Positions 1-52,606 are shown, counted from the whole stretch's first letter. The stretch is DNA of 62,911 nt, filler included, from Streblomastix strix (GCA_008636045.1; 2 parts of 2 records of this genome joined end to end with filler, not necessarily neighbours in it); one strand, 5' to 3'. Notes: generated by a model from the sequence alone, not told the origin. Translations and numbers: made by a program.

Positions 1-900
1 GATGATATTAAACGCTTCTTATGGGTCTGATGGATGAATACTGAGAAATATAACAAGATCAAATTACTCAACAAAGAGAAGACTATAGAAGCACATACTA
101 AGTAATCATGGATGAATGATCATAACTTAGCTGATAACCTTTATGCTGTTCAATTTAATCCAAAGAATTGCAAGTGTAATACATGTTTATAAGTTGCTTA
201 TTTTACACTAGATAATGCAAAATATTGGTATCTTAATTTCATATATAATTTCATGTATAAATGCTTGGATATGACTAAGATTCATTTTATTGAAGGAGAT
301 ACTGATTCAGCTTATTGAGCAATTAGTGGCAAATAAGTTATACTCAATAGCACAAACTAGTAAGAGTACGAAGATAACTTGCATCAAGGATTTAAATATG
401 TCATCAAAGACCAGTCAGCATGGCAGGCTTTGCAAGGTAAGTAGTTCTATGACGCTAACGCAAAATATTACTTTCCAACAATTGAAGAAGATAAATAAGA
501 CGAAAAGAAACTACTAAGTTTATCTATCGAAAATGAAGGAGATGAGATATTTGCATTAGCCCCCAAAAATTATTATATTCATACATTTAAAAGTAATTTA
601 ATTAATCGATATAATAGAACTTAAAGGAGTTAATCTAAGATAGAACAATATAAACAAATAAGACATAATTGATAATATCGTTAATGGAAAAATAACATAA
701 GGAACTAATATTTGATTAAGTTAATAAGCAGGTTAACTGTAAGAAGGTTAACTATCAAAGACTTATTGTATGAGTAAGTTATTATCAACTAAGAATGCGT
801 TAACTGGTATATAAACTAAGATGATAGTACTTAAAAAATAGTTAAAGTTGTCTACCATTCATCCGTGGATTAACTGCTGATAGTTCTATTGACTTAGTAG
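1..900 (+). pseudogene. Protein-primed family B DNA polymerase, C-terminal part, disrupted
   Basis: Motif B ILNASYG at 5-25, motif C EGDTDS at 292-309, then ALAPKNY and LKGV. Frameshifts near 33 and ~605, with in-frame TGA at 316-318 and 713-715. Confidence 0.9.
411..444 (+). repeat. Copy 1 of a ~27-34 nt dispersed micro-repeat, inside pPolB
   Basis: ccagtcagcatggcaggctttgcaaggtaagtag, 27/34 identical to 15729-15762. Confidence 0.7.
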
Positions 901-971
901 ATAATCGAAGATTCAGAAACTATAAGTCTAAGCTTAGCAGAGCTCAAATCTATGATTTCAAACCTATGGTT

Positions 972-2075
972 TCAAGTTGATTTTTTAGCATTTATGCCAG
1001 TGCCTTTGGCGTTACCTTTCTTTTTAAGCTATTTTTTATCATATTTCTTTTTAAGTTCTTTCTATGCTTCTATTGTTGCAGTCATTTATTTTTCGCTAAT
1101 GAAGTTCTTTTTAATTTTAGCTTAATTCACTTTCTCAACTTTTGATAGAGCTTTGTTCATTTATATGTAAGAAGATATTTTATCATTTATTCTCATACTT
1201 ACAACCTTCTCTGGGAATTGAACCGCATTAAGAGAATTTAATCCCCAATCCAATGAGCCTAACTTATAATTAATTGCATCATTCATTCTAGTCATTTCAT
1301 TTGCTTATAAATCTTCAATTTTATCTTATTCAGCTTATTCTTATACCAATGATTTTTATTATTAAGGTTCTACAACTGGAGATGCAAGTGGTATACCTTC
1401 TAATACATCATTACCTAATTGTTCCTGATTATTTTCAGTCTCAAACCCCTTATCTTAATGAAGCACTTCATGTATCTCTTTTTATGTTGCTTCATTTATA
1501 ATATCTTCTCTTTCTTTATATTAATTTGTAAGTAATTCTTTAGTAACTACGTCTTAGGAAGGTTAATTTTATAATGCATTGTAATTTAAATATGGTTATA
1601 TATTTTTATAATTGTATATACCAGAGGCAAGTTATGCATTAACATTAGATATTGCAACTAACGAAGGATCACCTACTCCAACAGCATTATTTATCATATT
1701 TTTTGCTATTGCTTATGGTTATATCTAATCACGTAATACATCTTAAGCTATTGATCTCATTGATAGTAGATCTAATGATTTTGGTTCTATTTCTCTTCTA
1801 TATCTTCTGAGATTATCATCTTATTTTTTACCAAAAAATGATGCTGTTTCTTTTAATCCATATTATCTTATACCTGATTATCTTAATTATTATTGATTTT
1901 AATCCACAAAATAACTAATCACATCTATCTTTCTACTATAAATCTATGATTATTAACAATAATTAGTAATTCTTCCTCTTAATGTAGCAACAGTATCATT
2001 TTATTAACAAGTAATACCAATTTTATCAGCTAAATTTTAAAGTGATTCTGTACTACCATTTGATATGTAAGACAT
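972..2075 (-). CDS. Viral hypothetical protein, 367 aa, with a Lys-rich C-terminus (possible core/DNA-binding protein)
   Basis: Open from ATG 2075 to TGA 972 in code 6 (MSYISNGSTESLQNLADKIG...KKKGNAKGTGINAKKST). Confidence 0.7.
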
Positions 2076-2091
2076 TTTAATTCACTAAAAA

Positions 2092-2304
2092 ATGAAAGTA
2101 AAAGAATATATGAAATACAGATAATTCTTATCATCATTACTCTGTTTAGCTACTAAGTCAGATCCAACGATAGAACTACGATTCATTCTACGATAATTTA
2201 ATAGACGATTGACAATGGATTAATTAAAATAGGTTATTGATCAAGGATAAATAAACAGTTATGAAGTAGTACTATTATTGATGAATATGTTGGAAGACAA
2301 ATGA
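2092..2304 (+). CDS. Viral hypothetical protein, 70 aa
   Basis: ATG-to-TGA ORF in code 6 (MKVKEYMKYRQFLSSLLCLATKSDPT...). Confidence 0.5.
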
Positions 2305-2324
2305 TTAAGAAAAATAAATAGTGT

Positions 2325-2711
2325 TCATTGATCATAAGTTTCATCTTCTTCTTTATTTTCAGTTATCTCTTTTAGTTTATTTTGTTTATATTTCTCAAGT
2401 ATATTAAGTATAGTGATTATATCTTATTCATCTAGTTTTACCTTTTAAATCTATCGAATAGCAGTACGTTATAATTCAGTGATTGTTTATCTAAATTATC
2501 TAGTTATTGCATATTAGTTCTTTTTAAACACACTTCGTTATTCTCTTGCATTAATTTTAGCCTCTTCATTTGTATTATATTTCTTAGGTCTACCACTTTT
2601 AACACTTTCTTTTTTTTCATATTTAAGTTTTTTAGTAATAGTCTCTTCGATGTTAGCATTTATGCTAGACTCTTCAAGTTTATTAGTTTCATTAACTACG
2701 TTCATTTTCAT
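2325..2711 (-). CDS. Small basic protein with an AT-hook-like GRPKKY motif, 128 aa
   Basis: Code-6 extension of track ORF 2538..2741: KSGRPKKYNTNEEAK followed by a helical region. Confidence 0.6.
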
Positions 2712-3846
2712 TGAGTAAAAAAGTCTATTTATATTTAACAACTAAGTTTTCAAAATTATCACTTACCTTCTTAGCGAAGTAAATAGGTATTTCAACTTAT
2801 TGTATATCTTTATATGGTTTCAATAACCTACAGATTATATTCCCATGCTAATACTTCTCGAATATTGCCAACTCATTAAACTATCTACGCTATTTTTTGA
2901 ATTAATAAGATGTCTTTGAAAAATCAAGGTGAATCAGTATAATATTTCCTTTTGTTAGTTTTGCTAAATAATTCTACGATTATTTAACATCATTTAATTT
3001 CTTCATTTATGATCGTATATATTTACCTTCTAAATTTTCATATTTATTAACCTATGATGGACTATGCTTTAAATCAAAGGCACAATGAGGCTTATCTTTA
3101 TAGAATTTAACTATCTATTACATTAACTTTGGATCTGGCATATCTTTACCAATGAAAGCATCTCTATTGGTTCGAATAACTCTGTCAACTTCTCTATTTT
3201 TATTAGTGAATTTTGATTTACTCATGTAATATTATATTTAATGAGCCTATAAGAAATCCTAGACCATTTTACTACCGATAGCGCTTTCACTATCAGACCT
3301 TAGATTAGTTACATGCTGTTATTTAAACAATTAATCGAGACACCTTAATATCTCCTATTATGTTTTATTCTTTATCTCCTAGACAGCTAAGAATTTAATA
3401 TTGATATTAATGCAGAATAGGTAACAACTTTGTTGCTGGCCTAAAGGCTAATCTTTCTTTCCATCGAATACTATATCTATCTCCCATGATCCTAATGATT
3501 TAGAGAAGTAAGGTCTATAGAATTACTTTAATGGTTTTAATTTATAATCCTTTATCTAATTCTATTTATCGAAAGGATTGGATAGAACAGCTTCGATCGC
3601 TGTCAATGTATGATTCTTTTTAACTTTTTCTATATGGTATTCTTAAAATTTATCTAGATATTACTTATATAACTCAGCTATTATTTTAACATTTTTTACT
3701 TTAGACCCACAAATACCTTCAGTGAATTATTTTTCTAAATCATTTGAGGCAAACTTAGTTTCAAATTATCGATTCAAACTAGTTACAAACGCTTTCAAAC
3801 TCAATTTATTTATCTCATAAGCCTTATCATTAATGAATTTATTCAT
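2689..3846 (-). CDS. Retroviral-like (rve) integrase of Polinton type, 385 aa, open frame
   Basis: GSWEIDIVF, YLFCININ, NLRSDSESA, VDRVIRT and FYKDKPHCAF follow the c-integrase core order D..D..E/D. Confidence 0.85.
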
Positions 3847-3903
3847 TTCAATTCAAAAATATTGGCTCAAACCAATGGTTTTCTAAATCTGAAGGATATA
3901 TCA

Positions 3904-3937
3904 TTGACTTGCTACGCAAAGCCAGCTTCACTGACAA
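3904..3937 (-). repeat. Copy 2 of the dispersed micro-repeat
   Basis: Reverse complement reads ttgtcagtgaagctggctttgcgtagcaagtca and shares gaagctggctttgc with copy 3. Confidence 0.65.
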
Positions 3938-4069
3938 ATCTTCGATTCGCAAGCATATTTGATAGCGAAGTTGAATATCTACTTGAATAGCTCATGCCAA
4001 TTAATCCCAACTGATTCAAGAGCGTTAATCATTGTCTGATTGAATATCTCCATTTTCAGTATAATAAAT

Positions 4070-5531
4070 TCATTGAATATATTACAGCTCCAATAGTAAA
4101 TTGTTATATATATCCATAAACTAGTTAGATATTCTTCATCCAAAATTATCATACAGTTTAAATACAAAGGATCTACTCATACCCATTAATCCAGTCTATG
4201 ATAACATATTCTATCCCCAAAGAACTGGTGCTCCTATTAGATTCTATTTATAGCACACATTCGAAAATCCTACATTGTTAATGGTTTGCATTATTGAACC
4301 CATCATTTGATTATCAACACATATAATTAGCATCTAAGGATACTCTAAGAAATTACCGATATAGGGGCAAAAGATGGGTATGTCCGATAGTAATGACTAT
4401 TAATTATACTTAGTTTTATAGAACCAATCTTATAGTTCTATTATTTTTTCTTTAGAGGTAATATTAGACATTTGGTTAGCATTATTTTAGTTAACACAAT
4501 CATACAAATCTAGTCCACCAGTTAACTATACGTATAAGTTATTAGATAATGCTATACTATTAACGTACCAGTTACTATGTGGTTTAGAGTTATATTCATT
4601 AACTACTGATGGAATATATTACCCATATTAATTTAATAGCTAACATTCAGTATATATATCCTTCCATTATTATACGTTTAATGCAGGTAATGAACATATC
4701 ATTCTAATGGGAATGTATTAATGCTATTGCTAATTTATTGCATCGTTAATGATTATACATTAATTGGGTTAATATCAGTTTCATCTAAATTACCATTAGT
4801 TATTGTTATCTATTTCCCAAAATTATACATTACATTAATGGAATAAGACTAATCCACACTCTATAGGGATTCGATTGATGTTATGAAGTTATTACCATTT
4901 GGCTCATATAATCTTATTAGACCAATACATCGATAAGCTATTACTAAATCTGTATCAAATATCCAATAATGATATAAGAAAGCATCCAAGCGTAAATTGA
5001 TATAGTTTAATGCAGAACTACATATATCTGTACCATTATTTATAATCAATATATATATTTTTCTATTATTTTTGAGTATGTTCATTTACACCGTTATTGA
5101 AACAGATAGAATTGGTGTTAATGCTATTGATTAGTTCGAAATACTCTTCCTGATGGTCAATGAATGAGTTAAAATCAGTTTATTTCAATGCGTTAACTGA
5201 TGGACTATATAGATATGACTATTTATCTGAATTTAATGTATACATGTTATTTATTATAGTATTCATTTTAATTCTAATCGGTGGCAAACTATCAATAGCT
5301 TCTAGTTTATAAGTGCTATTTGCATTCTTAATTTATTACTTCAAATTTAATACTTTTAGATTATCTCGGATTTCTATATAGTCATCGTTAATGAAGATGT
5401 ATAGATTTAAAGGTATATTGGTCATGCTATTAATTTAAAATTATCTATATCCAGTAGGAGCTTGAGCTAACCATTCAATGTAATCCTTTTCGCTATCATT
5501 GTTGATTATTTACAAACCTATTTTAAGTCAT
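4070..5531 (-). pseudogene. Probable minor capsid (penton-like) protein, frameshifted
   Basis: Beta-rich, ~480 codons. N-terminal region reads PTGYRQFQINSMTNIPLNLYIFINDDYIEI and the C-terminus reads SFVFKLYDNFG*RISNQF..NNLLLELQY, resembling single jelly-roll penton ends. Several frameshifts and one TGA. Call rests on pattern and context. Confidence 0.55.
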
Positions 5532-5561
5532 TTATTCAAGACAAAAATAAAATCAAGATCA

Positions 5562-6377
5562 TCAATTGATTGACCTCTATGTAACGGTTTATCTAATTAG
5601 CTCCATTATCTCGGTATCATCTTATTCATTTGGTATAGTAAAACTAAGTTTTTTCATTTTAATACCTCTGTCTTTTAACACATCCTTAATGGCATAGTTA
5701 ATTGTTACCGCTATTGGAAAATTATCGATATGGATAATAGATCTTTAAACAATTTAAGGGTATTTATTTATGCTATTTTTATGTAATCTATGTACTTTGT
5801 AATACATTCCATCAATGTATTCGTTAATGAATTCAATTGAGTATATATAATCATATTGTTTATCTTGTAGCACTAATCTAGGTTCCATATGTTGAATTGT
5901 ATTACTATAGTCAGCGTTTTCACGTTAAAGTTGTTCAATAAGTCGATTCGTATTCGCTTCAAAATTAGTGAGTGTTTACTAACTATTTTCGTTAATTGAG
6001 TCTATTATATCTGTAACTATATCAAGATATTTAATTCTTGTTTTCATACAAATGATATTAACTAATCTTGGATTAATATATGTTCCTCTTACTTCATTAG
6101 TATATTCATTGATTAATTAATATTCAATAGAGGGCTGGCTGGTTTTCAAGCCAGCACTTTTTTCATTGATATATTGCTTATATTACCTATACAAATGTGT
6201 TGAAGTTATATTCTTTAATAATTTGTTTGTTTATTCATGTTCATTAATCTTTTAAGCTAGTTTCGTTGCATTAATGTATCCATCTTATTCACGTATCATT
6301 ATCTCAAAGCTTTTATATGTTCCGATAGTGAAGATTTCGTTATTGGATGAAATTTTAGTTGCTATTGGTATAGTCAT
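5562..6377 (-). CDS. KilA-N domain DNA-binding protein, 271 aa
   Basis: DGYINATKL and RGTYINPRLV are KilA-N signatures, followed by a coiled coil. The frame is open in code 6. Confidence 0.85.
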
Positions 6378-6423
6378 TTTAATTATTGAATAAATAATGG
6401 AAAAAATAAATATGTTAAATAAA

Positions 6424-6675
6424 TCATAATAAATTATTATCATTAATAATTTCATTAATATAATCATTATACAACTTTTCATTAAATTATATATGTACTA
6501 CATCTTTTAATTCCTTCATGTAATAAAGTTTATTATGTAATCTTTGTTTTATAATATCCTTATTTTACTTCATTGTTTGTCTCAATTATTATTCTTAATC
6601 CATTAATGATTATATCGTTTATAATTGTTAATAATGTGTATTAATTAATTACTATTCGCTTTCATCTCCATTCAT
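6424..6675 (-). CDS. Viral hypothetical coiled-coil protein, 83 aa
   Basis: ATG-to-TGA ORF in code 6 (MNGDESEQQLINTHYQQLQ...). Confidence 0.45.
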
Positions 6676-6861
6676 TTACATATATTTTAAAAATCAAAAA
6701 TAATTCTATAGTCATATTTTATCAACTTCTCTCATAATTTAAGATATTTCTATATAACAATTATTATATTCATCAATATCTGAATTAATGCAATCTTGAG
6801 TAAAATTATTCAATTAATCTATTAGGATAGAAGACTCTATGAGTTTATCGTTAGTTTGATT

Positions 6862-6897
6862 TTATACTCTTTTAGAGTCTAGACTTTCAGTATATTA
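6862..6897. repeat. Palindromic repeat with agtctagact core, copy 1; copy 2 at 9412-9445
   Basis: ttatactcttttagagtctagactttcagtatatta versus ttatactctttaagtctagactttcagtatatta. Confidence 0.75.
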
Positions 6898-7127
6898 ATG
6901 AGGCTATTAATCAAGCAATTTATCTATTTTATCGAGTTTATTAATAACATAATTTAATTTCCTAAATATATCAAATAGTTATTATGTTTCTTCTATCAAT
7001 ATATATATGCTACAAGTTTTCTTATATATCATATGTATTGTCCTAACCCATTTAAATTAATGATAAAAAATAAAAAATCATATTCTTAGAGTCTGAGAAT
7101 CTCCGATTATCATTATCAGTGAAATGG

Positions 7128-7148
7128 CTGGTGACAAAGTCACTATCT
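7128..7148 (-). repeat. GTGAC-nnn-GTCAC hairpin overlapping a stop codon, copy 1; copy 2 at 13411-13431
   Basis: Minus-strand AGATAGTGACTTTGTCACCAG versus plus-strand AGATAGTGACTGTGTCACCAG, 20/21 identical. Confidence 0.75.
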
Positions 7149-7352
7149 TGTACCATTAATGTATCGATCAACTCCACCAGCTAATTTTGCCCCTACTCCC
7201 ATAGCTGATCCTACTGCTGGATGAATCATAGAAACTGGACCTGCTAATGTATCTAGAATTTTATTCAATGTTGGTGCAACCCAACTTGCAGCCTTAATTA
7301 TACACCCTAATACTTTGCTACCGAAATTTTTCAATCCAGACCAAAACTCCAT
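7140..7352 (-). CDS. 70-aa amphipathic Gly/Ala-rich protein, adenovirus protein VI-like (candidate membrane-lytic virion protein)
   Basis: MEFWSGLKNFGSKVLG matches the pVI amphipathic helix WSG(I/L)KNFGS. The gene is divergent from, and adjacent to, the major capsid gene. Confidence 0.6.
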
Positions 7353-7412
7353 TTATTACAATAAAAATTAATCATTATAAACGTTTTAAGCTGTTTCTTT
7401 TTTATAATCTAA

Positions 7413-9382
7413 ATGTCATTTGCGTCAAGCGATTATTTGAAACGATTAGCCTCTGCACAACATTAGGATTACATTAATTCATACTTATAATTCTAGGAAA
7501 TAATGCAGACTCAAACTATATATGCATAATCATTTTGTATATCTAAGCAATAATTCTTTGATTAACCTGTAATTTAACTTACGAATGATGGTGCACATTA
7601 TACTAGAGCGCCGCTTGCAGCAAGAGGAACTGCTACCTGTTCAATGATTCAAATTTGTTAAATCAGTTGGCAAATTTAGATACCAGCGAATACATTAGCG
7701 ATATAGGTTAATTAAGTAGTAGCTACAGGTGATGAAGGTTAAGTAAGAAATAGATAAATATCAAATTATAATGCTATTAATACTGGAGTATGGAATGATC
7801 TTTAAACAGTAACAATGTAATAACGTGGAACAGCAGCCACACAGTAGCCATATTACACTAATGAACACATTAAATTTTGGTTAGGTTTCTCATCAGCTTG
7901 TGGACCATTTAATTAGATTGCTATATGTAAAGATTCATAGAAATTGTGGCATACATCAATATATGCTAGAGAGTAAGCAATAATTGCATCCAACTCATTG
8001 ACTGATTAATGTACCTCTAATTCTGTAACAGTTTCTCCACTTGAAAGTATAGTAGAGGGTAAACGACATTGTGGGATATTTATTGATATACCTGTATCTG
8101 TTATTAATGTTAAAGATGCCTTTAATTATTTGATTCGTTATGATATAGTATTTAGTGGAGTAATGGATCTGAACTAACTGAACCCTATCTTCAACAGCTT
8201 TCCTGTATTGACTAGAAATTATGCGTCATTGTATATATAATTTTGGATGTAAGACTTCTTGTAAGATTTGAAGTTTGCTTGGTTAAATAATTATAACCCT
8301 GTCGATAATACATATCTAGCCTATACAATGATTCCACCAGAGAAACCAGATATAATTTTCTTGAAAAATAGAGCTGCAGCAGTAACTTATAATCAATATG
8401 CTATTCGATTGGTTAATATGGAAAGTTAACCTAATACAACAAAAATACCATCAGCAGCTATAAGTTAAATCAAGAATGCTAAATTTACTGAATTATATAT
8501 AAATAACCTATGTTTTAATATAGCGAATGAAGCTGTAATTAGTGATATGATTCGTAATACAAGACTCATTAACTTCAACACATAAGTTTTTCGTATTTAA
8601 TCGTCTAACTATCCTGTAAGTAATATTGGGGATGAAGGTGGATTTATTTAATCAATAATGTCGTTTGCTAACATCAAGTCTCTATTCGTTACATTTGCTA
8701 TGCCATAATATCCTACATGATTATTCCCTGTTCTATTCAAAACCATTGATTTGATTATAAATTAGCGACATGTTATCCCATACGCTTATCCCGCATTAAC
8801 TTAAGATGTCTGTGGATAAATGTTTGATTGTTTCGTTGATTAAGATGTTATTAGTGCCTCATCAGATTTATATCATTCATTAGTGTTTGAAAACTAACAT
8901 ATAGATGATAAGAACTATCCTTATGGAATTGAAGTAGCTGAGATAGTTGGATAACTTAGACCAGTATCTAACATATTTTATAATACTGCATTGAATAATG
9001 GTACTAAAGCTATTAAAACATACTATCCCAATAAATTTATGCTAGCATGGAAACTTGCTACTGATGATTCATTTATGAGAGGGTATAACTCATCTAAGAT
9101 AGGTGCAAGAACTAATATACAAGTATAAATTGGATTCACACCTGTAGATAATATATGTACTGATGAAGCAATTAGACCTGCTGATCTCGATTAAATCAAT
9201 TTTAGTTACTTTACCTCAACTAGAAGTTACCCAAATATTAAGAATGTTAAATTGACCCCATTAACTCAATATCTATATGATAGCGTTGTTCGAATAATGT
9301 TTGATGATATCCCTGAGCCATAAATGCTATCATTAGAGAGGTAATTGGTGAGATAGGTGGAAGCGCTATCCGTTCAGGTTGA
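7413..9382 (+). pseudogene. Probable major capsid protein (double jelly-roll), ~655 codons, one premature TGA and a terminal frameshift
   Basis: Longest beta-rich ORF in the element (FWLGFSSACGPFNQIAI; DLNQLNPIFNSFPVLTRNYASLY). TGA at 8718-8720 and an AG duplication near 9338. Identity is inferred from size, composition and context. Confidence 0.7.
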
Positions 9383-9411
9383 ACGAAGTGAATTAGATTA
9401 GGATGAAAATA

Positions 9412-9445
9412 TTATACTCTTTAAGTCTAGACTTTCAGTATATTA
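9412..9445. repeat. Palindromic repeat copy 2, just downstream of the capsid gene
   Basis: aagtctagactt palindrome inside an outer tatact/agtata stem. Confidence 0.75.
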
Positions 9446-9461
9446 TTTTTACTTAATTTAA

Positions 9462-9992
9462 ATGAATCAAGATAGAAAGAAAGTATTAAAAGCATTAAAG
9501 ACAAAAATAATGAAGAGCAATTTTCAAGATAAATAGCTTATACAATAACTTGTCAATATGCTAAAGGATATAGTTAATGAAGATAAAACAAAAAGTAGCA
9601 CACATCCACATTACTATGAGGTATCTAATCTTAGTATTAATTTTGATATTATGAATGAAAGACTATACTTATTTAAACGTTAAAGTAATATAGAATAATA
9701 CAATAATAAGCTATACAATGATAATCATTATGACTATATAAAAACATATAATAAGTGTAAATAAGAGATAAATATTAATCCAAAAATAATTAAAATAAAG
9801 TAATACCTATTAATGGATGTCACTAACGAAGATAAATAGATATATAATTAGTTTGTATCAGAATAGAATCATAAGTTGTTTTGTGATTACTATTAATAGA
9901 ACACCATCATAACATCTCAAATCATAGTTGAGCCAATATAGTCGATGGAGTCGACATTTTTATTAAAAAAGTTAGATAGTCAATGTACTTGA
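9462..9992 (+). CDS. Viral hypothetical protein, 176 aa
   Basis: ATG-to-TGA ORF in code 6 (MNQDRKKVLKALKTKIMKSNF...). Confidence 0.55.
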
Positions 9993-10701
9993 TTAGCTCA
10001 TTACACTTGACTGAAAATATTAATTCATCACTATCGTAATACTTATCTTTAATTTCTTAGAAGTCCTGTTGTTATTTTTATTCTGTCTAGTTTATTGGTT
10101 TCTCATTAACGTAACCATATCCACTGAGTAATGATTCAAAGATATGATACACTTCATTATCTGTTGAATTAATCTTCTACCCTAGTTTTTAAGCTATCGT
10201 AAAGAGTTATAGCAAAGCTCTAAGAATCTCTGATTATTATTCCATTTATATCTTCAAAAAAATAATCAATTGAGTTTTCACAATTCATTAGCTTATTCAT
10301 AATCATTATATCTTGTTTCTTCAGCTTCTCTTGCTGCTCTTTTATTATGTAAATGACATTAAATATTGCTAAGTTGTTTCATTTTTTTAATAAATTCTTT
10401 CCTTCTTAATTGATTTAATGCTATATCTTATTTACTAACTGCTTAAAATTTATCCTAATTAAGTATTTATATAATGTCTCTGTAATTATTCATTTGATCA
10501 TGTATTAAGAATAACATCCCATCATTATCTAGCTCAATTATATTATAATTATTGTATGCAATATTACTTATCAATTCTATTTCATCTTATTCATTTATAT
10601 GTACTACATTATAACTCATTTATGATAAAATAAAAAAACCAAAGGGTTGAGAGAAACGAAAGATAAAAAATCAAAGAACTTTGTTTTAACAAAAGTCATC
10701 A

Positions 10702-11994
10702 TCAGATGACACGTCCATTAAATGTTAATGTGTTTCCATCAGCTGATATTTATAAACCTCTAGTAAGATCACTAGCTTATGAGGCTACTACTATTATAAA
10801 ACTTTAAGGTGATTATGTAGCATTAATTGATGGTGTATATATTACCCACTATCCATCAATAGCTCCTCCATTAGTTGTTCTACTACAGCCTAATTAAATT
10901 GATGAACTACCTACAGTTTCTACTGATCTAGATATTCACAAACCATCATCGAATCCGAGTTAAGAAATAGAGTTAATTTAAACGGTGCCACAAGTAACCC
11001 CAGCGAATGATGTCTTTGTACCTGCATTTAATATAAATTGTTAAGTTATTTTAACATTAGGGTAAGCTGAAGATAAGGCAGTACCTCGATAGTTAATGAA
11101 TAATTTTTGATTAGTCTATGTTGAATTATATGAAAATATTAACTCATTTTCATTAAACATCTATTCACAATAATAATTAACTGAGTTACTAGCGAATAAA
11201 ATTAATGGTTTAGTACTATCTTAAGGTTATAACTGAAACTAGTCATTTTTGAATGTCTTTCCTCCTACTATTGTCTCAGTTTATGATTTATTAACATTTT
11301 AACTATATATTTATCCTCTTGTTCCACTAGCACTATCGTGTGGATGGATAGAAGTTGTTGTATTTAATGGATGTTAATGATCTCCACGAGAATACTCAGT
11401 TGAAGTTCCTACAACTCCAGTTCCACTATCAATTAATGGGTTTGCATCACTTGTGGCGGTTACTTAATCTGGTACTATTTTATCTATTTCAACCCATTAA
11501 CTTCCATCATAATCCCATACTAATAAATCTTCAGCACTATACGTATAATCACCTATTGCAGGATTAGCTAAAACAAGTATCTCATCGTTAGTTGTAAATT
11601 AACCTCTGAAATGTGTCTATCGAGCTAACTCACTGTTAATAACTTATACATCAGCCTATAACTATCCTATGTCTTAACTGTAATCATTAATCTATTATTA
11701 TATGTTTTATACTTACTATTCTATTATGATTATTTTATATATGAAATCATTGTTTATTAATTGTATATTGTTAACGATTAATAAGCCATCTTACGTTAAT
11801 TTCATCGCATAATCTATGGGGTTATTCTTATGACAATTCAATAGGTTATTTTAGTCATCAATTATTAATTAATAGTTATAATTCTCAATAAGACTATTCG
11901 AACTACTCTTCTTTGAGTACTACATATAATAACTAATATCTGAGTGTATTAATCGTTTGATTACTGCCAATTGCTATTATGAAAGTGAAGTCAT
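10702..11994 (-). pseudogene. Tail-fibre-like virion protein 1, 430 codons, one internal TGA
   Basis: Coiled coil, then SDANPLIDSGTGVVGTSTEYSRGDHQHPL, TETIVGGKTF, DDGL*ISR and RGLQISADGNTLTFNGRVI. TGA at 10936-10938. Confidence 0.65.
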
Positions 11995-12029
11995 TTTAGT
12001 TAATTTAAATGAGAATTATTTCATTAATC

Positions 12030-12422
12030 ATGTCAATATTGAATTATTTATTCTATGGAGCTAATTTCTTATTATCTGTCAATAGTTTATCGATACCAAA
12101 TTAAGCATAAGAGTTAATCAATGTAATTAAAAAGCTATGCAGTTATTTAGATGTGATAGTGATTCCAATTAGTAGTATAGTATATATTGATAAATTCTTC
12201 TATCATCGCAAAATGTCAATTTAAAAGGAAACTTAAGGTTTGAGTTTCACTAATCAGCTTTGGAGTTAATATACTATTGACGAGCTGTATTAATTAGTAT
12301 AATTAGCGATCAACTATAAGGATATTAAATTTGCTTAGCAATATCGGTATCTAATTACTTTAAAGTTGATTAAATAATCCAATTATAATGAGTCTTGCAG
12401 AGATAAAGCAAATATAGTTTGA
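12030..12422 (+). CDS. Viral hypothetical protein, 130 aa
   Basis: ATG-to-TGA ORF in code 6 that overlaps the ATPase start. Confidence 0.45.
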
Positions 12423-13419
12423 TACTTATAACATGTTAGATGAATATAAAATTCGTCCATTAACGCTTAAATCAATCTTCCTTATTAACGCAAATCATTA
12501 TATTGTAGGTGCAGTTGGAAGTGGTAAAACAACATTAATGAGTAAACTAATTGTATTATATAAACATATAATTAACCCCTATATACTATACTTCTCAAAT
12601 CTTGGACCAGATAAAAGTATGTCATTAAATATGAATTATAAAAATATATAAATTAATAACATAACTTATGATGATGCGATGATGTTCATACCTTAATTCG
12701 ATGAGATTAAATACAAAGTTAAAGAGATATATACCTATTGGAAATTAAAGCAAATGAAAATTAAGTAATACAGTGATTACATTAAATAGCTTAAATAGAA
12801 TATGATCGATGAAAATGAAATTAAAAAGAATGAATCATATTAATAGTTTAAAGCTAGAATGAAAGAATAGTTTAAGATCTATTGCATTGAAACAATTAAC
12901 GAATATAGTTAATAAAGCAGGGTTATGTAATATGTTATCCCATTATTAGTTCAAAATGTTAGTTAATAGAATAAGTTAAAAATTATTAACACATAAGAAG
13001 TAGATAAAGATGGAGTATCAATAATTAAAATACTAAAATTACCTATACTTTAAAATGCCCGATTATTATCTATATTAATGTTCTTTGATGATATTGGATC
13101 TAATACAGATATATAAAGATATACTTCATAGTTATCTCGTACAATAACTCATCTCGTTAGTGATAGTAGACACTCTAAAAATACACTTTTCTTTGTTGCT
13201 TAACGAATGTAATACTTGTTCAAAACTGCACGAATATTATGCCTTGTAATAGGGCTTGAGGTTAGTTTAGGTGAGAGTGATTTAAAATAAATTTATAATG
13301 AGAATATTATAAATACATTAATGGAGTAAGAGCTATTGATATTATATAACACATTGAATAAGTATGAGTTTATTGTTATCAATAAGTGGTTGCAAAGATT
13401 TGAAATAATTAGATAGTGA
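12388..13419 (+). CDS. A32-like (FtsK-HerA) genome-packaging ATPase, 343 aa, open frame
   Basis: Walker A GAVGSGKT, Walker B LMFFDD, then SRH..TLFFVAQ..Y..KTAR, typical of A32 packaging ATPases. Confidence 0.9.
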
Positions 13420-13431
13420 CTGTGTCACCAG
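13411..13431 (+). repeat. GTGAC-nnn-GTCAC hairpin copy 2, overlapping the ATPase stop codon
   Basis: AGA TAG TGA CTGTGTCACCAG. Confidence 0.75.
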
Positions 13432-13689
13432 AACCATCAGTTTTAATGAAATCATGCTTTTATCAAACTATATTGCTAAGAATACTCGAAGAGTCTTAGC
13501 CTAAAGGCAATCTATGATTATTATTTTAGTTATAAATGATCTGGGAAATAATTAGCAGTGTTTCATTAATGATAATAGCTATTATCAATCTACTAGGCTA
13601 TATATTAACGTTATAATAGATTTCAATTGATAATGAAGAGATTAGTAATGAAGTAAGAAACTCAATTTACTCATAATTATTAATTATAT

Positions 13690-14706
13690 ATAGCATAAAA
13701 ATCACATCGTTATACACAAAAATCATTAGGTAAATAATACTAGCATATAGCATTAATTTTAATATGCCAATTGGGATCAATATATCAATCAATAGCAATC
13801 GGATTAGTCCATACAACTGGTGTAGTTGCTTACTTAGTTATATACATAACGGCATTAAGTGAGATATTACGAGGTGTTCCACTGAACTTGGGTCTAGCTT
13901 AATCATACATAAGAGAGAATAAGGTATAAGCAGTATTCCATTAAGTACTAGGGTTAGAGTGAGTTATTGCTATAGAACTATATCCACGGTTATTTTATAA
14001 GGTTAATGTACCCTAAGTGAACGTATCAAATACACCAATACCGAGTACTTATTATATAGTATAATCAATAGGCTTAGGTGCTATAATCTCGTTATTGAAT
14101 TTAAGTGATGTACAATCGAAATCTATAATCAATCCCTTGTAATCACAAGCTTAATCTTCTTATTTTTGTATCCAAAATTATGATGAAGTTGATCCAGCTT
14201 TCCATACACCATCTCTATCTATGGGGTCAGTGTTACAACCAGTTAAAACGAAGCTATCCCAATTCGCTTTAATTTTCATTATTCTGATACCCTAATCTAA
14301 TATATTATTATTTGGTTCGATAATCAATTACTCCATCGCATAAGAATAGTTTTTAGGTAAAAAATCACATACATCAGTTGTATCTCCATTAGCTAGAAGT
14401 AATTAGTTATCAGTTCCATTAGTTTTTATAAATTAATTAGCATAGATTGAGTTGGAAAATTATTTATACCCTGTTACTGTTTGATCAGTATCTAGTATCA
14501 TTAAATCGGATATATTAACATTCTTAGTTTTCATATATTAGCTAAAGTAAGTAAACAGTTTAATAATCTCAGTATCAATGAAAGAGATTACTTATTTTTA
14601 TAGCTTCTCTAATTACATTATTTCGTCTTATTTTTGTTATATCTCTTACAGTTTTTTTTTACATCTTAATTATATCCTCTTCAGTTGGTTCGATCAATGA
14701 TTCCAT
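13690..14706 (-). pseudogene. Tail-fibre-like virion protein 2, disrupted; 3' end approximate
   Basis: N-terminal coiled coil with a +1 slip in the A9 run (14652-14660), then DTDQTVTGYKQF..FIKTNGTDNQLLLANG and a beta-rich C-terminus. TGA at 13785-13787. Confidence 0.6.
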
Positions 14707-14746
14707 TTGTTTAAAAATAAAGGATACAATAGTTGAACGAAGAGAA

Positions 14747-15389
14747 TCAGAATTCATTTATATCAATTTCTTATTATGGCTTATCAGATAGTCTAATGAA
14801 GTCTTTGTTAATGCGATATAGTTTCTCAACAGAGTTCCACAGCACATTATCAAGTACACTAATGCTTACATTTTTAATTAATACATCCATTACTCTAACA
14901 AGGTCATTCTTCTTATATTTCTTTGCCATACATGAATGTGATTACATTAATGGTTCCTCTAATACAATTTCAATATCTTCTTCAGTTTCTTATGTTATCA
15001 ATGACCAAAATTTAATGAAGTTATCGCTATTCAATATAAAATTATCTCCTAGCTTTCTTTATGTAGTTAATCTCCATATACAATCAATAACAAATTTAAG
15101 TACCTCTAGATTAGGATGTGCTAAGAATGTATTTTTAACTATTTCCTCGGGTTCAACTTAAGCAGTCTCTCGTTCTACTTCTTTGTATTTATTATTATTG
15201 TAATGTCTCTTAGGCCTTAACTTCATTCTTAGTGGTGTCATCTTTAATTTCGCTTTAGCTCAACCGTTAGGTTTCTTATTATTGAGCAGATAAATTTCTC
15301 AAGGCTTAATCAATTGACTACAATCTAAATTTATCTTCTTCCGTTAATTCTTTCTTCATTTCTTCTATTTATTTCTTTGATTTACTCAT
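14747..15389 (-). pseudogene. Viral hypothetical protein with one frameshift
   Basis: MSKSKKQIEEMKKELTEEDKFRL...FLAHPNLEVLKFVIDCIWRL...; the span is not a multiple of 3. Confidence 0.5.
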
Positions 15390-15453
15390 ACGCAGTTGAT
15401 TCCTCTCGATGCTTGAAATCATTTAAATCGATTAAAAATTTTATCATTGATAA

Positions 15454-16046
15454 ATGGATAAATCACAAGCCTTAAGAAAATTAAAAGAAGGCAGTACAAC
15501 ATTTGAAAATTTCAATGGAAGATATTTAATGTAAATAGGTAAGTAGATTAAAATAGTTGAATATGGTTAGAAGGTTCCTAAAATATTAACATAAACTTAG
15601 TAAAATAAATTGCTATAAATGCCTGTATAATCGAAGATTCATAAGAAACGCTAATAAAATAATAAGAAAAGCAATTAATGTATCAAGATGATGATGATGA
15701 AAGTGAAGAAGAATGAGAGATATAAGTACCAGTCAACGAAGCTGGCTTTGCAAAGTAAGTAATTAAAAAGAAGGTTAAATAAATTTAAAAATAACCCACT
15801 ATTAAATATTCTACTCCATAGATAGATCTTGAAGAGCTAATTAAATTGAGAACTGAAAATTAATTAATCAAGGAATCACATATCGAAGCATAAAAGTAAA
15901 TTAATAAATATAAGAATAAATTAAAATCAATGAATTAAGTAAAAGAACCTATTATTGAAGAAACATTTAAAGAAGAACAAGAAATGAAAGAGCCAATTTA
16001 AGATTAAGTTAGTGAAAGATATTTTAATGAGTTTGAGTTATATTGA
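15454..16046 (+). pseudogene. Viral charged/coiled-coil protein, disrupted
   Basis: MDKSQALRKLKEGSTTFENFNGRYL..., with a frameshift near 15670 and a TGA near 15714. Confidence 0.45.
15729..15762 (+). repeat. Copy 3 of the dispersed micro-repeat
   Basis: ccagtcaacgaagctggctttgcaaagtaagtaa. Confidence 0.7.
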
Positions 16047-16455
16047 CGATTAACACTTTAGTGCTAAGCAGCATAGTTGTTTATTTTTACAACATCCATT
16101 TCATTATCTGCATCGACTATCTATACTTTGTCATCTTCATAATTACTGCAAATTATTAATTTTGATAATCACCGCACCCCTCTCCCTTTGATGAATAGTT
16201 CAAATCATTGAAATTAATCATTTAGTAAGAATGACATTTTAAGTTTGTATATACAATGTATTGATGTAAATGAGTTTCTGCCTAGGTAGAAATGGTGATT
16301 TAGGCTGTGATTTGAGTGGGACGTTATTTTTAAAAAATTAGAGTTATTATAGATATTTATACCCGTTATTTCTGTGGAGTACTGGCGCTGGGTTTATTTG
16401 TGTGATTATCTATAAGATTTTAAAAATAGTGCCAATTTCGCCATTAATATCTTCT

Positions 16456-16775
16456 CACATGTAATAAAAAATTGTAAAGATCAACGAAAGGATATATTTA
16501 TTACTAAGATCAAAAGATATTATCTAAAGTCAGAATACAATAACTTACTTGAATTATCACCCATCTTTAGAAATATTGAGATAGAAAACAACGATGAAGT
16601 GATAGGTGAATATATATATTCAGAAGCACAAAAACATTCAATACCAATGATTAACAAAGATAGAAAACTAACATTATTACTTGATACTAATGATAAATTT
16701 ATTGTATATAATAACAATTATCTTTGGCTTCCTATTGATCTTGGTTTCATCATTACGATTAAAACGCTATTACAG
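16456..16775 (+). pseudogene. Internal fragment of a second pPolB-like gene
   Basis: YNNLLELSPIFRNIEIEN..VIGEYIY..KDRKLTLLLDTN..NNYLWL..DLGFII resembles the region between motifs A and B of Polinton polymerases. No catalytic motif is present. Confidence 0.55.
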
Positions 16776-16851
16776 TAGAAGGGTGATATCTCTTTTCTAT
16801 GTAAAAATGATATTTACGTGAATTAATCAATGGAAAATTAAGAGATGATGA

Positions 16852-17376
16852 TCATTTTTGTTATACATTATACTCTTCATCATTAAACTTGTAAATAAAC
16901 ACTTTGTTATCATTATCTTCAATGTACTATTCTAGCTCAGCTATTTTATCTTCCTTAATCTTATATAATCTAAAATGTTTCTTCATACGATGTAGTCGTA
17001 TAGTTTCACAGTTCTTAGGAATTTATAATCTGAAATTTCCTGGCTTAAAAGAATCAGGACAGTATTATTGAGCTTCATCACATAACCAACAAACTTTTAA
17101 CTATTTATAATATTTAATACAGAATCAATCTATGTCAATTAATGATATCTCGATAATTTATTTCTTAGCCTCAATCATTGATATGATTCAAGGGTCAAAT
17201 TATGAAATATCTAATTTAAGAAAGTATATTATTAGATTATCATAAAAACTTTCTTGATTTATGTTCTGAAATAGATTCTTGAAGTAACCAGTATTCTTCG
17301 TATATTTAAAATACAACTTATTCATCTGTATATTCCATTTTCCCTAAAATATATTAAATTTGATTTTTACTTGCAT
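16852..17376 (-). pseudogene. C-terminal fragment of a D5-like primase-helicase, two TGAs
   Basis: FYDNLIIYFLKLDISQFDP*IISMIEAKKQIIE resembles the FdPr.iP.teaK segment that follows the SF3 helicase domain. No Walker A is retained. Confidence 0.5.
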
Positions 17377-18205
17377 ATAAAAATGAAATCATTTTATCTT
17401 TTAAGTATTTTTGTTAAGTGTGCAATATGTGATATTTTCCGCATTTCCGCCGATATAAGTGTCATAGGTGTAAGGGCAATTATCTCGTAGGATCCTCAAT
17501 CAATATATTTTTTGTAACAGGTAGATTAGGTAATGCTGTATATATTTTCTAGCATGTAGACATTGAAATGAGCTCGTAAACTCTTTCTAATTTATATTTT
17601 CAATATATTTAGTCTTAATATTTCCTATTCATTGCTATAAGTATGGAGAATGGTAATTTTTCAATCATGGATTCTTGAGTTAATAAGAAAAGCTGTTTTA
17701 AAGAATCAATTAGCACTAGGATCATCACATGCATAAACAGATAAAATGTGGATATTCAATTCATCAGTAGTTACCCTTGATTGGGGAGATGTCCTTGAAT
17801 TAGAAGGAAGACTAATTGGAGCTAAAGAAGCTAGATCTCTATTTGCTACAGATCAAAAGTGATTAATGGTAATAAAAGGATGTTTAATAATATATAACTA
17901 CTTCAACTTGGTCCAACTTTTCAGTCAAAAACTCTATTGAAATTATTTATATAAATTTTTGCTTCAATCCCAAACTTTTATGGAGTTTGTGAATCGATTA
18001 CTGAAATTCATGTATCATATATTTTCTTTATCACATCTCCTTTATCAATCTCCTGGAAATGCCATCACGCAACTTTGACAAGAAAATAGGTGAATTGTTG
18101 ACAATGGTATCTAATAAGCTAATGGGCATGAGATGCTAGCAATCATTCACGGGAGGATATGCTCAAGCAGTTCGTTGATTGAATTTGAAATAAGAAAAAA
18201 GGATA

Positions 18206-19786
18206 CAGTCAGTCCTAATTCTCAGTTATTTGCTAATTTTCAGAAAAAATAAAAATAATATGTTGCGAATTATTAAACGATATAAGTATATTTATCATTT
18301 TATTATTACAAATTGTGAAAATATAAAATTATAGTTTGAAAAAATTCAACAAATAACTCAATCATCCAGAAGGTCGCAGTTGAAAACGCCAAAATCTGAT
18401 TATTTTCTTTTGCGAGTTTACTTTGTGCCAAAGTTTTGCGAGAGTCTGCTATCCTTTTTGCACTACGCTATAATTGGTTCTAATGCGGTATGATTGAAAT
18501 GAACTTTGATTATTTCATAGTCGCTGTTTATTTTTAATCCTACTTTTTTGAAAGAATTTTCGAACGCTGTTTCCATCACAAACATCTAATATGCTGATGC
18601 TGATAACTTAATTATGTCCTAAATTGAATCATAGAATTAATTACCACATAGTTATAACAAATGATGTTTTTATCCGCCGAAGACGTCGACATCCAAAACT
18701 TGAAGATAATGTTTAGAATTTGGAAGAGTTCTAACTAGCACAATGTTGTTTGCACTTAATAACTCTAATATTTCTTATGTTATATGATATTTACAATTAT
18801 CTGATAACAGATACCCCCTCTGTTGGGGGCAGCCGAACTCATCACCCATTTTCTCGAAATATGGTATGAGGAATTCCTTTACAAGTTCAATTAATAGAGC
18901 GGGTCATTGTTGCCTCCTTTTTATCTAAATTTTTTGATATCGATAAGTTTCTTCACTACATAGAAAGGAATGAAGTGTTCGAGTCCCATCGTTATTGAAA
19001 CAAATAAGCTGAACCTAGGTACTTCTATCAACAGGATGGTGTGCAGATCCTTCTCCAACTTGTTTAAACGTTAAATTTCTTAAGATTTCATATAATAAAA
19101 GACAGTATACCCTCTCTCGTCAATGTGATCAATGAAGTAAATATTTTCGCCTTCAAACTATTAATATTGAATTGTACCTTGATCATTAATGTCCATTTCT
19201 TTTATTTTCATTCTTGGAGCTTCAATTTTTGTAGCAGTTTCTTGTTTAATTTCATCTGGATGGCGATTAATCAGCGATTTTTGGAACGAATGGCCAACAG
19301 AGTGGTCAGCTTCCTCCTCTACCTGTTCTGTGAGCTTAACTGGAGAAATTTATTTGCCTTATGCATCTTTATCTCGAAATATCTCAATAACTTTTGTTTC
19401 TTGCTACGGTGATAAAGTAACATTGGCTTTAATAGCGACTTTTTATAAATTCGTCCTATGGGCGCCTCAGGAAATTGCAGAAGATTTGCATCCAATTATT
19501 TCAGACAGTAGTAGTCCTGTCAATCGCGGGATGACCTTTTGGTTTTTTAGTGTTACGATCTTCCTTATGAATTCGTCCTTGCTTCTAAATTGCTCTTTTT
19601 CGAGTATTCTCTGCAATGCGGGGAAATCAAAAAGTTTGATATGAGGATCGAACTTCATTATGATGCATCTGACGTCTATGAATAGGCTCCCTTCAGATTT
19701 CGGCATAATTATCAAGAAATTTATTTGAATTTAAATAGGCCCCAAAATGATAAAATTAACAAATAACTAGGAACTAGCACTGACTG
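18206..19786. mobile_element. pogo/Tigger-type (Tc1/mariner superfamily) DNA transposon, 1581 bp
   Basis: Imperfect 35-bp TIRs (cagtcagtcctaattctcagttatttgctaatttt at 18206-18240, inverted copy at 19752-19786), each flanked by TA, with an internal DDE_1 transposase. Confidence 0.9.
18358..19706 (-). pseudogene. pogo-family DDE_1 transposase, disrupted
   Basis: IDERG, YLLSDNCKYH and LPNSKHYLQVLDVDVFG correspond to DETG, D..H and LQPLD. TGA at 19467-19469 plus frameshifts. Confidence 0.85.
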
Positions 19787-20129
19787 TATTTTAATTTATT
19801 GGCCATTTTATTTAGCATTTAACTATTTTTTATTCAACATTTTAACCAGCTTTAACTTTATATTTTATTTTTTTTTTTTAATTAACGTTTTTTTAATTTA
19901 ACTTTAATCTTTTTGTCCGATGCGAGAATTTCTATGCTTAATTACGCAGTTATTTAATTTTGTTTTTATTTTTATACACCATTTGCCTATGGGGAGTTTC
20001 ATTTGCTGACTCTCTTCTCACCTACTTTAAATTTTAAAAACAAGATTTCGTCTATTTTTCTGCTGGATCTCTTGTTGTGAATCCAGATTTATCAATTCTT
20101 TCTACCTTTCTTTTTTTTCCTTAGTGGCC

Positions 20130-23100: not shown

Positions 23101-23494
23101 TTCAGAATAAGTTGATTAGCAATAAGAAAAAGATACAGATGAATCTAATATGAAAAAAGACATAGATGAATCTCATATGGAAAAAGAAGAAATTTCAAAA
23201 AATGAAAAATAAGATAATTTGGAGTTGGTTCAAACATCATCTATGCACTTTCTTCCCTCAATTTCATATTCTCTTCCCCATTAATCTCCTGGTATTACAA
23301 CAGAGATTTTAGTTCATAAAGAGAATTCTAGATCAGTAATCAATAATAGTTCAGTCTCCATCTTCAATCCGAATCCCATGGCTGGATTTTCAAGCATCAT
23401 TTCAAAGTAATTCGCACACACGAATAACTAATAACGCAAGACTCAATATCTTGGCGAGGCCTCTACACCACTGGCGTTGGAATTTGAGGAATGA
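20130..23494 (+). CDS. BRWD/PHIP-like Tudor-type domain plus bromodomain chromatin protein; 5' exons uncertain
   Basis: FEVGDEVVFVRSAY, WKVGSHF, DPYNAYDVMW and RMSAWEL, then bromodomain APGYSLKISKPICLEIIKSKI..FASDIRLMFNNCLSFN and a charged tail. Stop at 23492-23494. Confidence 0.75.
20935..21125 (+). repeat. Three degenerate ~69-75 nt coding tandem repeats (KPSEPESAKxNQREE)
   Basis: ccttccgaaccagaa...aaagagaaga units near 20939, 21008 and 21083. Confidence 0.7.
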
Positions 23495-31433: not shown

Positions 31434-31533
31434 NNNNNNNNNNNNNNNNNNNNNNNNNNNNNNNNNNNNNNNNNNNNTTAATTAATTAANNNNNNNNNNN
31501 NNNNNNNNNNNNNNNNNNNNNNNNNNNNNNNNN
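31434..31533. other. Artificial contig linker (N44-TTAATTAATTAA-N44)
   Basis: Exactly 100 bp and symmetric, with a six-frame-stop 12-mer at 31478-31489. Confidence 0.95.
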
Positions 31534-52342: not shown

Positions 52343-52606
52343 ATATTTAATCTAATTTAAAATAAATTAAGTAAAATTATTATACATGTAAATTTTAACT
52401 TAGTGCTTGTAATATAACATAAAATTAATTTATTTATAAATTTGAAAATTAGAAACAAATTTGTGTGTTTTTATTTAGTGAAGAATTAAAAATTAAATAT
52501 ACTCATATTTTAATAAATAAAATAAACATTTATATTCAAAAGTAATATGTAGCAGCAATACTTAAAAATAATAATTTTATTTTATTTTGTTGAATCAAGG
52601 ACAAAC

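Follow-up and report, generated by a model that had tools for sequence, protein, structure and literature searches.

A probable Polinton-like element of Streblomastix strix, broken as assembled, with a conserved 70-residue peptide gene beside its predicted capsid gene

Gene content and extent of the element

The DNA analyzed here is a stretch of 62,911 nucleotides (nt), filler included, deposited under Streblomastix strix (GCA_008636045.1) and referred to below as the window. Its left part, from position 1 to approximately 16,100, is very probably a multi-copy, Polinton-like integrating element, likely of this oxymonad, with genes for an rve-type integrase, a predicted double jelly-roll major capsid protein (MCP) and, beside the latter, an amphipathic peptide of 70 amino acids (aa). 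The principal features are:

7413..9382, plus strand: predicted double jelly-roll MCP gene (fold and feature searches on sibling P0001), with a TGA at 8718-8720 and a frame change at about 9339
7140..7352, minus strand: 70-codon amphipathic peptide gene, head-to-head with the MCP gene and 60 nt from the MCP start
2689..3846, minus strand: rve-type integrase, open, 385 aa (Pfam rve)
1..850, plus strand: C-terminal piece of what is probably a family B DNA polymerase of the protein-primed type (pPolB), with motifs NASYG, GDTDS and PKNYY
12388..13419, plus strand: P-loop ATPase, open, 343 aa, with Walker A GAVGSGKT, FFDD and SRHSKNTLFFVAQ read directly
5562..6377, minus strand: KilA-N domain protein, open (Pfam KilA-N, E 2e-13)
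4070..5531, minus strand: conserved gene of approximately 480 aa, candidate minor capsid protein, broken (siblings P0122, P0140 and P0212)
15400..16100, plus strand: right-most repeated part, with the approximate right edge placed by a drop in depth of run X1

An earlier, sequence-only reading of this DNA had proposed an integrating, Polinton-like element that carries a double jelly-roll capsid gene, and this was supported. The integrase matched Pfam rve with an E-value of 1.5e-5 (25.6 bits, below the gathering cut-off of 32.6), and its core alone with 1.4e-6 (29.0 bits); this assignment, like that of KilA-N, was upheld. In the polymerase fragment, family B motifs NASYG (at 11) and GDTDS (at 298) were read directly; no match was obtained for it in Pfam, PHROG, PDB, phage or polymerase sequence scans, and its putative pPolB label is based on motifs. 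Pfam matches of the ATPase were generic (best E 0.0015); it is likely the packaging ATPase, putatively of the A32 type.

The family is large. MCP homologs numbered 187, and the 120 listed were all named Streblomastix strix and shared 44-83% identity with the window; records P0002, P0125 and P0208 are the window's own sequence and were dropped from the counts. Across positions 1-18500, 6231 related records from run X1 were placed, and the summed depth of these contigs decreased from 22,050 at 15426-16042 to 928 at 16043-16659, i.e. at about 16,050. Run X1 may be the source sample of the genome and is not treated as independent, and its depth gives no copy number. No terminal inverted repeat (TIR) was seen within 1-20000, the left end of the element lying outside the window, and no motif of or Pfam match to an adenovirus-like cysteine protease was present in 1-17000, the left part of the element being missing.

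Gene order in the siblings was conserved locally: the peptide gene stands with the MCP gene, KilA-N precedes the 4070-5531 gene (P0222 and P0227) and the MCP gene precedes an open reading frame (ORF) of 176 aa (P0082), and other arrangements were present in P0121, P0084 and P0186. The gene order expected to recur in other copies is retained as local pairs and not as a whole.

Major capsid protein

The capsid-sized gene at 7413-9382 had been singled out in the sequence-only reading, and four fold or feature searches, performed with the 82% identical sibling P0001, predict that it encodes a double jelly-roll MCP. When the structural model of P0001 was compared with the PDB using Foldseek, all top rows listed were double jelly-roll capsids (iridovirus, with the best E-value of 1.6e-4, mavirus, Sputnik and hexon), and a BFVD search with the same model (best E 4.3e-5) agreed with this assignment. 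Atlas features matched a 547-aa Preaxostyla cluster (0.97; template-modelling (TM) scores 0.58/0.67 over 470 residues), a Parabasalia cluster (0.96) and viral MCP clusters (0.95-0.96), and the top two of these matches place the protein in the Metamonada MCP group, together with trichomonad and oxymonad MCPs.

None of 70 MCP family members matched DUF4106, and the family therefore appears to be a distinct subfamily within this group. Nor was there any match to Sputnik_MCP or MCP_V20_C in the 70 members, both of which are matched by virophage MCPs of IMG/VR. The sibling MCPs end without a tail helix and so differ from the virophage type of MCP with a protease-cleaved tail. Full-length-looking genes were found in 18 of 145 MCP records, the nearest pairs being up to 98% identical.

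A conserved peptide gene adjoining the capsid gene

The peptide encoded at 7140-7352 begins MEFWSGLKNFGSK and carries the stretch FWSGLKNFGSK at its N-terminus. It belongs to a family of 13 sibling clusters plus further members (53 records), which is conserved in both length and sequence: WSGLKNFG is present in 43/53 sequences, and glycine at position 2 in 39 of the 44 short records, the window peptide having glutamate there. Record P0125, although it is the window's own, was kept in the peptide alignment (A3) and in the 53-sequence motif count. Eight of the 53 peptide locus tags adjoin one of the 145 MCP tags, an incomplete list (random mean 0.28, maximum 4 in 20,000 trials). The two genes are divergent in the window, P0116 and P0137, and in tandem in P0069 and P0097. 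In four sequences the hydrophobic moment of residues 2-19 was 0.41-0.44, a value reached by 0.6-2.5% of shuffled sequences.

The product is likely a free-standing membrane-entry peptide that would need no protease cut. The gene is a new, previously undescribed feature of an otherwise known kind of element. In a literature collection that lacks most subscription journals, no article was found that connects a Polinton-like peptide, virophage tails and protein VI by sequence.

Likeness to virophage tails and adenovirus protein VI

A scan of IMG/VR with the peptide motif returned five loci, and all five were C-terminal tails of virophage MCPs, directly after GG or GSG. In order to avoid circularity, virophage MCPs were then collected via core motifs (n = 27); six were already seeded and three were cut before the tail, which left 18. 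A profile built from S. strix peptides alone had its best match in the tail in 18/18 of these unseeded MCPs and started at the first helix positions in 15 of them. Thirteen of the 18 tails were aligned (A9), after removal of one duplicate, one cut sequence and three with an offset best match, and hhalign gave a probability of 97.5% between this alignment and the peptide family. When the 13-tail profile was searched against the PDB, six adenovirus pre-protein VI entries were among the top nine (E 0.08-0.28); Pfam protein VI was not matched by any of 13 peptide members.

In adenoviruses, the gene of the protein VI precursor (pVI) adjoins that of the major capsid protein, hexon. The peptide gene likewise adjoins the major capsid gene, and in P0069 and P0097 it does so in tandem. 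The motif WSG[IL]KNFGS at residues 41-49 of the adenovirus precursor corresponds to the start of the peptide, whereas pVI is a protein of 217-266 aa with a propeptide and a C-terminal cofactor, and about 14-18 residues align, with E-values that are not significant. In mavirus, the MCP tail is cut at GG|X and its amphipathic helix was proposed to rupture the endosome (Born et al. 2018, PMC6048507). The window peptide shares with this C-terminal domain the amphipathic helix, and its sequence matches virophage tails of IMG/VR; in virophages, however, the helix is an MCP tail freed by a protease and followed by an Arg-rich end, whereas here it is encoded by a separate 70-aa gene starting with Met-Gly in the family, without an Arg-rich end.

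Several observations were made on the virophage and JGI contigs themselves. The virophage MCP tails (L003, L005, L008, L009 and L016-L042) consist of GG, an amphipathic helix, IPHP, a Gly-rich linker and GG with an Arg-rich end, and in three virophage contigs a gene with a weak match to the L544 nucleotidyltransferase adjoins the MCP gene. On a non-virophage contig, FWSGLKNFG is found near the N-terminus of a 271-aa protein (L002:4298-5110) encoded beside a tyrosine integrase.

Decay of the copy

The element in the window is a broken copy which, as assembled, is unable to encode a whole capsid protein or polymerase, and it is most likely dead. The near-complete virion module seen in the sequence-only reading does not hold, as the MCP, the polymerase, the 4070-5531 gene and the first fibre-like gene are all interrupted. 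In the MCP gene, a TGA stands at 8718-8720, a site at which Trp is found in 84 of 86 motif-matched siblings, and the frame changes near 9339; the MCP product deviates at 15 conserved columns (6.6%, the ninth highest value among 47 rows). The 4070-5531 gene is spread over three frames and has a TGA at 4136-4138. The polymerase fragment, whose first base (base 1) already lies within motif B, contains two frame changes and TGAs at 316 and 713, and the frame of the first fibre-like gene goes on past a TGA at 10936-10938. The integrase, ATPase and KilA-N frames are open.

In the deposited gene models of P0002, P0069, P0100, P0121 and P0123, stops are spliced over and adjacent viral genes are fused, and public annotation therefore conceals the decay of this family as well as where its genes begin and end. 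An exact-sequence look-up matched one of 10 window ORFs.

Genetic code

Under the standard code (table 1), a single ATG ORF of at least 80 aa is present in 1-16450, whereas with table 6 the region is covered by long frames; standard-code annotation would indeed miss the element, as had been predicted. All 14 correctly framed element ORFs meet a standard stop within 2-70 codons (one misframed ORF row was dropped from the ORF and codon counts). The claim that the genes open only with TAA and TAG (TAR) read as Gln is thus right as to the need for a TAR reading, and wrong in that the broken genes are not open. For the Gln identity itself, the basis is published work together with the annotation of siblings in that code, since a profile test of TAR identity (three NCBI tables, four domains) was split, Gln and Glu each being preferred in two domains, with Tyr last in 4/4. 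At 40 TAR columns the siblings have Gln in 61% of cases, a partly circular figure. TAR codons make up 236 of 285 Gln codons (83%) in the 14 element ORFs, versus 72-86% in four host frames, and the host-like genes to the right of the element (bromodomain and kinase) need the same TAA/TAG reading.

Long residence in the host explains the shared code equally well as adaptation or confinement to hosts of this kind; of the proposal that the virus is adapted and confined to them, the sharing of the code is upheld, and the two other parts are not favoured by it. A TGA-as-Trp reading was considered, as two window TGAs fall at Trp-like sites, and was rejected: all 14 framed ORFs end in TGA and the siblings carry ordinary Trp in tables where TGA is a stop. 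Small ORFs are no evidence on their own, as frames in AT-rich DNA will often stay open by chance when a single codon serves as stop. TGA-free frames of at least 150 aa numbered 42, against a shuffled mean of 38.4, and small ORFs of the unknown kind listed in the sequence-only reading (about ten) are no more numerous than expected by chance; for frames of at least 300 aa the numbers were nine and 2.4 (maximum 9 in 100 shuffles).

Candidate minor capsid protein

The 4070-5531 gene had been proposed as a second capsid gene. Of these two, 7413-9382 gained support as a double jelly roll, and the single jelly roll of 4070-5531 did not: its fold model, in which the last ~35 residues are missing, had a pLDDT (predicted local distance difference test) of 34.6 and no Foldseek match. 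Profile tests against virophage pentons (from which L017, L024, L031 and L042 were excluded) were negative; they were of low power, as the same test missed an MCP-MCP positive control. In Atlas, the gene matched aspartyl-protease clusters only (0.75-0.76), which gave no lead. By eye, a C-terminal D-x-x-G-x-x-x-P hairpin resembled virophage pentons, a likeness for which hhalign and hmmsearch gave no support.

Other genes and remainder of the window

The remaining ORFs of the element are:

972..2075, minus strand: 367-aa ORF with a Lys-rich C-terminus, open under table 6, no family match
2089..2304, plus strand: small ORF, 48% identical to the first 70 aa of sibling P0121
2325..2711, minus strand: 128-aa ORF with a GRPKK motif, which we take to be AT-hook-like (sequence only)
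9462..9992, plus strand: 176-aa ORF after the MCP gene, which it also follows in sibling model P0082; no PHROG match
10700..12024, minus strand: first fibre-like gene, with a TGA at 10936-10938; no family match
13785..14618, minus strand: second fibre-like ORF, 277 aa; a homologous stretch faces the MCP gene in sibling P0084
14747..15241, minus strand: 164-aa ORF, open, singleton cluster

Neither fibre-like gene had a specific profile match in Pfam or PHROG. A 39-bp direct repeat (90% identical) is located at 6859-6897 and 9409-9445, one copy lying just upstream of the 176-aa ORF, and is possibly a regulatory motif.

To the right of the element, a broken frame at 16200-16860 (plus strand, as the polymerase fragment at base 1) has no profile match; related contigs are abundant at 16660-17276, and by its motifs the frame resembles the middle of a putative second family B polymerase. 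A frameshifted DDE_1 transposase-like remnant (18358-19466, minus strand, E 0.0027) is accompanied by an imperfect inverted repeat of 38 bp, with its two arms at 18203-18240 and 19752-19789. Two host genes, one for a bromodomain protein (20474-23494, plus strand) and one for a CDK-like kinase whose tail is rich in Arg/Ser (28121-29680, minus strand), are both read through TAA/TAG. At 31434-31533, two runs of N around TTAATTAATTAA look like an artificial linker between contigs (GC 0.26-0.27 to the left and 0.23 to the right), and at 42725-52594 (minus strand) a frame of 3,289 codons is free of TGA and matched nothing in Pfam.

Comparison with known elements

An endogenous capsid-encoding element in the TAR=Gln code of its host is already published for S. 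strix, and in this respect the locus adds little. The Metamonada endogenous viruses of S. strix and Trichomonas vaginalis share with it the host name, the TAR=Gln table of the host (a host that had to be treated separately in that study), intron-less genes and a divergent double jelly-roll MCP (Bellas et al. 2023, PMC10120064), and this was the only article found on endogenous viruses of this host. The S. strix representative MCP described there has 562 aa and 820 hits in one cluster, in contrast to the ~650 aa of the window family with its lack of a DUF4106 match; six window-family tags were not found among the supplement rows listed for that article, and the 820 may include this subfamily. 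In a 2026 preprint (10.64898/2026.06.19.733378) the Metamonada elements are left ungrouped.

With Maverick-Polintons (Polintoviricetes) the element has in common an rve integrase, polymerase B motifs, an ATPase, a double jelly-roll MCP and a length of ~16 kb or more; unlike in these, no cysteine protease, confirmed penton, TIR or target-site duplication (TSD) was found here, and the MCP matches no Pfam family. Tetrahymena also uses the table-6 code with TAR as Gln. The capsid-encoding Tlr elements of Tetrahymena thermophila (PMC4028283) likewise possess an integrase, an ATPase and an MCP; they have no protease, and none was found here either. They differ in that a superfamily 1 helicase takes the place of pPolB and a penton has been identified.

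Proposed function and alternative explanations

In intact members of the family, the polymerase would copy the element, the rve integrase would insert it and the ATPase would pack DNA into an icosahedral shell. The peptide may be packed inside the particle and, after release, its N-terminal amphipathic helix would insert into the endosomal or vacuolar membrane, possibly aided by myristoylation of Gly-2. As translation starts at the helix, no protease cut would be needed, unlike in adenoviruses and virophages, where the cut follows GG. The shared code would point to a long stay in the host and would keep the genes from being expressed in cells that use the standard code. With genes, breaks, numerous siblings and the conservation and capsid-side position of the peptide observed directly, we judge it reasonably probable that the window holds a broken Polinton-like copy from a family with a 70-residue entry peptide beside its capsid gene. 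More tentatively, and with slightly less than even confidence, we propose that one ancient entry helix is shared by eukaryotic double jelly-roll DNA viruses. By the same tentative proposal it would occur in three arrangements: at the N-terminus of adenovirus protein VI, in the tail that a protease frees from virophage MCPs, and as the free-standing, protease-free Met-Gly peptide beside the capsid gene of an oxymonad Polinton-like virus.

A number of results weigh against these interpretations. The AlphaFold2 model of the MCP is weak (pLDDT 49.9; predicted TM score 0.46), was made on the sibling and not on the window's gene, and gave Foldseek TM scores by query of at most 0.18 and a best VIA-align Z of 5.8, which is uninformative alone. 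No minor capsid protein, protease, TIR or TSD was shown for the element, and of the pPolB and A32-like ATPase genes previously proposed, motifs B and C and a P-loop ATPase were confirmed and matches to pPolB- or A32-specific profiles were not obtained. Bellas et al. (2023, PMC10120064) caution that, where such elements are assembled from short reads, stops are often artefacts. As regards the peptide, 2/4 loci from the JGI scan (L002 and L004) were not virophages, the other two being on contigs that IMG/VR had also yielded. Scores of the tail matches in the 18 unseeded virophage MCPs are low (0.8-17.9 bits), and the virophage sample, seeded from four motif-bearing MCPs, represents one clade. 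Without the first 12 columns, the hhalign probability drops to 6.7% (score 16.8, reached by 0/150 shuffles; shuffled maximum 14.5). Matches to protein VI (E 0.9-2.2 for the peptide family; 0.036 at best) are not significant, and two other entries ranked above them, namely a designed TIM barrel and a coat protein that is unrelated; short Gly/Lys amphipathic helices converge easily.

A rival explanation is that the peptide resembles protein VI and virophage tails only by convergence and is a scaffold, a cement or a generic membrane peptide like the adintovirus 'Cupiennin', which we consider rather unlikely. The concentration of the likeness in ~12 residues and the non-significant PDB E-values favor it, as do the small membrane-active genes of adintovirus virion modules (Starrett et al., PMC8502044) and the scaffolding role also given to the virophage tail (Born et al. 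2018, PMC6048507). Yet almost the same motif is met in three capsid-linked settings, each time at the functional N-terminus, F[WL]SGLKNF is rare in IMG/VR (20 stretches, at least six of which are virophage MCP tails), and the residual likeness beyond the motif still exceeds that of 150 shuffles.

It is quite unlikely, in our view, that the family spreads solely inside the genome as a transposon, with capsid genes as decaying relics and no particles formed. Such a history would fit the MCP records, 127 of 145 of which are partial, spliced or truncated (many on short contigs), and the absence of MCP relatives from IMG/VR and JGI pattern scans, in which most patterns contained Gln (2/3 and 2/2, respectively) and were blind to TAR codons; against it, the MCP remains full-length in several subfamilies (55-98% identity; 231 columns conserved to 90% or more), and the peptide has retained its length and sequence. 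An intact, virion-forming provirus whose stops and frameshifts are assembly artefacts of collapsed repeats is very improbable. Comparable stops vanish upon polishing in other protists (Bellas et al. 2023, PMC10120064), the relatives in run X1 are very numerous, and three genes have open frames; on the other hand, an exact 567-nt contig from that non-independent run covers the TGA at 10936-10938 with no differences, the region contains another five exact contigs (260-612 nt), and the breaks, as assembled, affect four genes and are accompanied by scattered substitutions at conserved sites.

Implications

The locus reveals a second capsid subfamily, of ~650 aa, in a group for which present classification schemes have no place. 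If the proposed common origin of the helix is true, protein VI would have arisen outside adenoviruses, and Polinton-like viruses would gain a concrete entry mechanism. The peptide turns the entry of Polinton-like viruses into a question for a direct liposome and particle test, and may serve as a marker for overlooked small entry genes.

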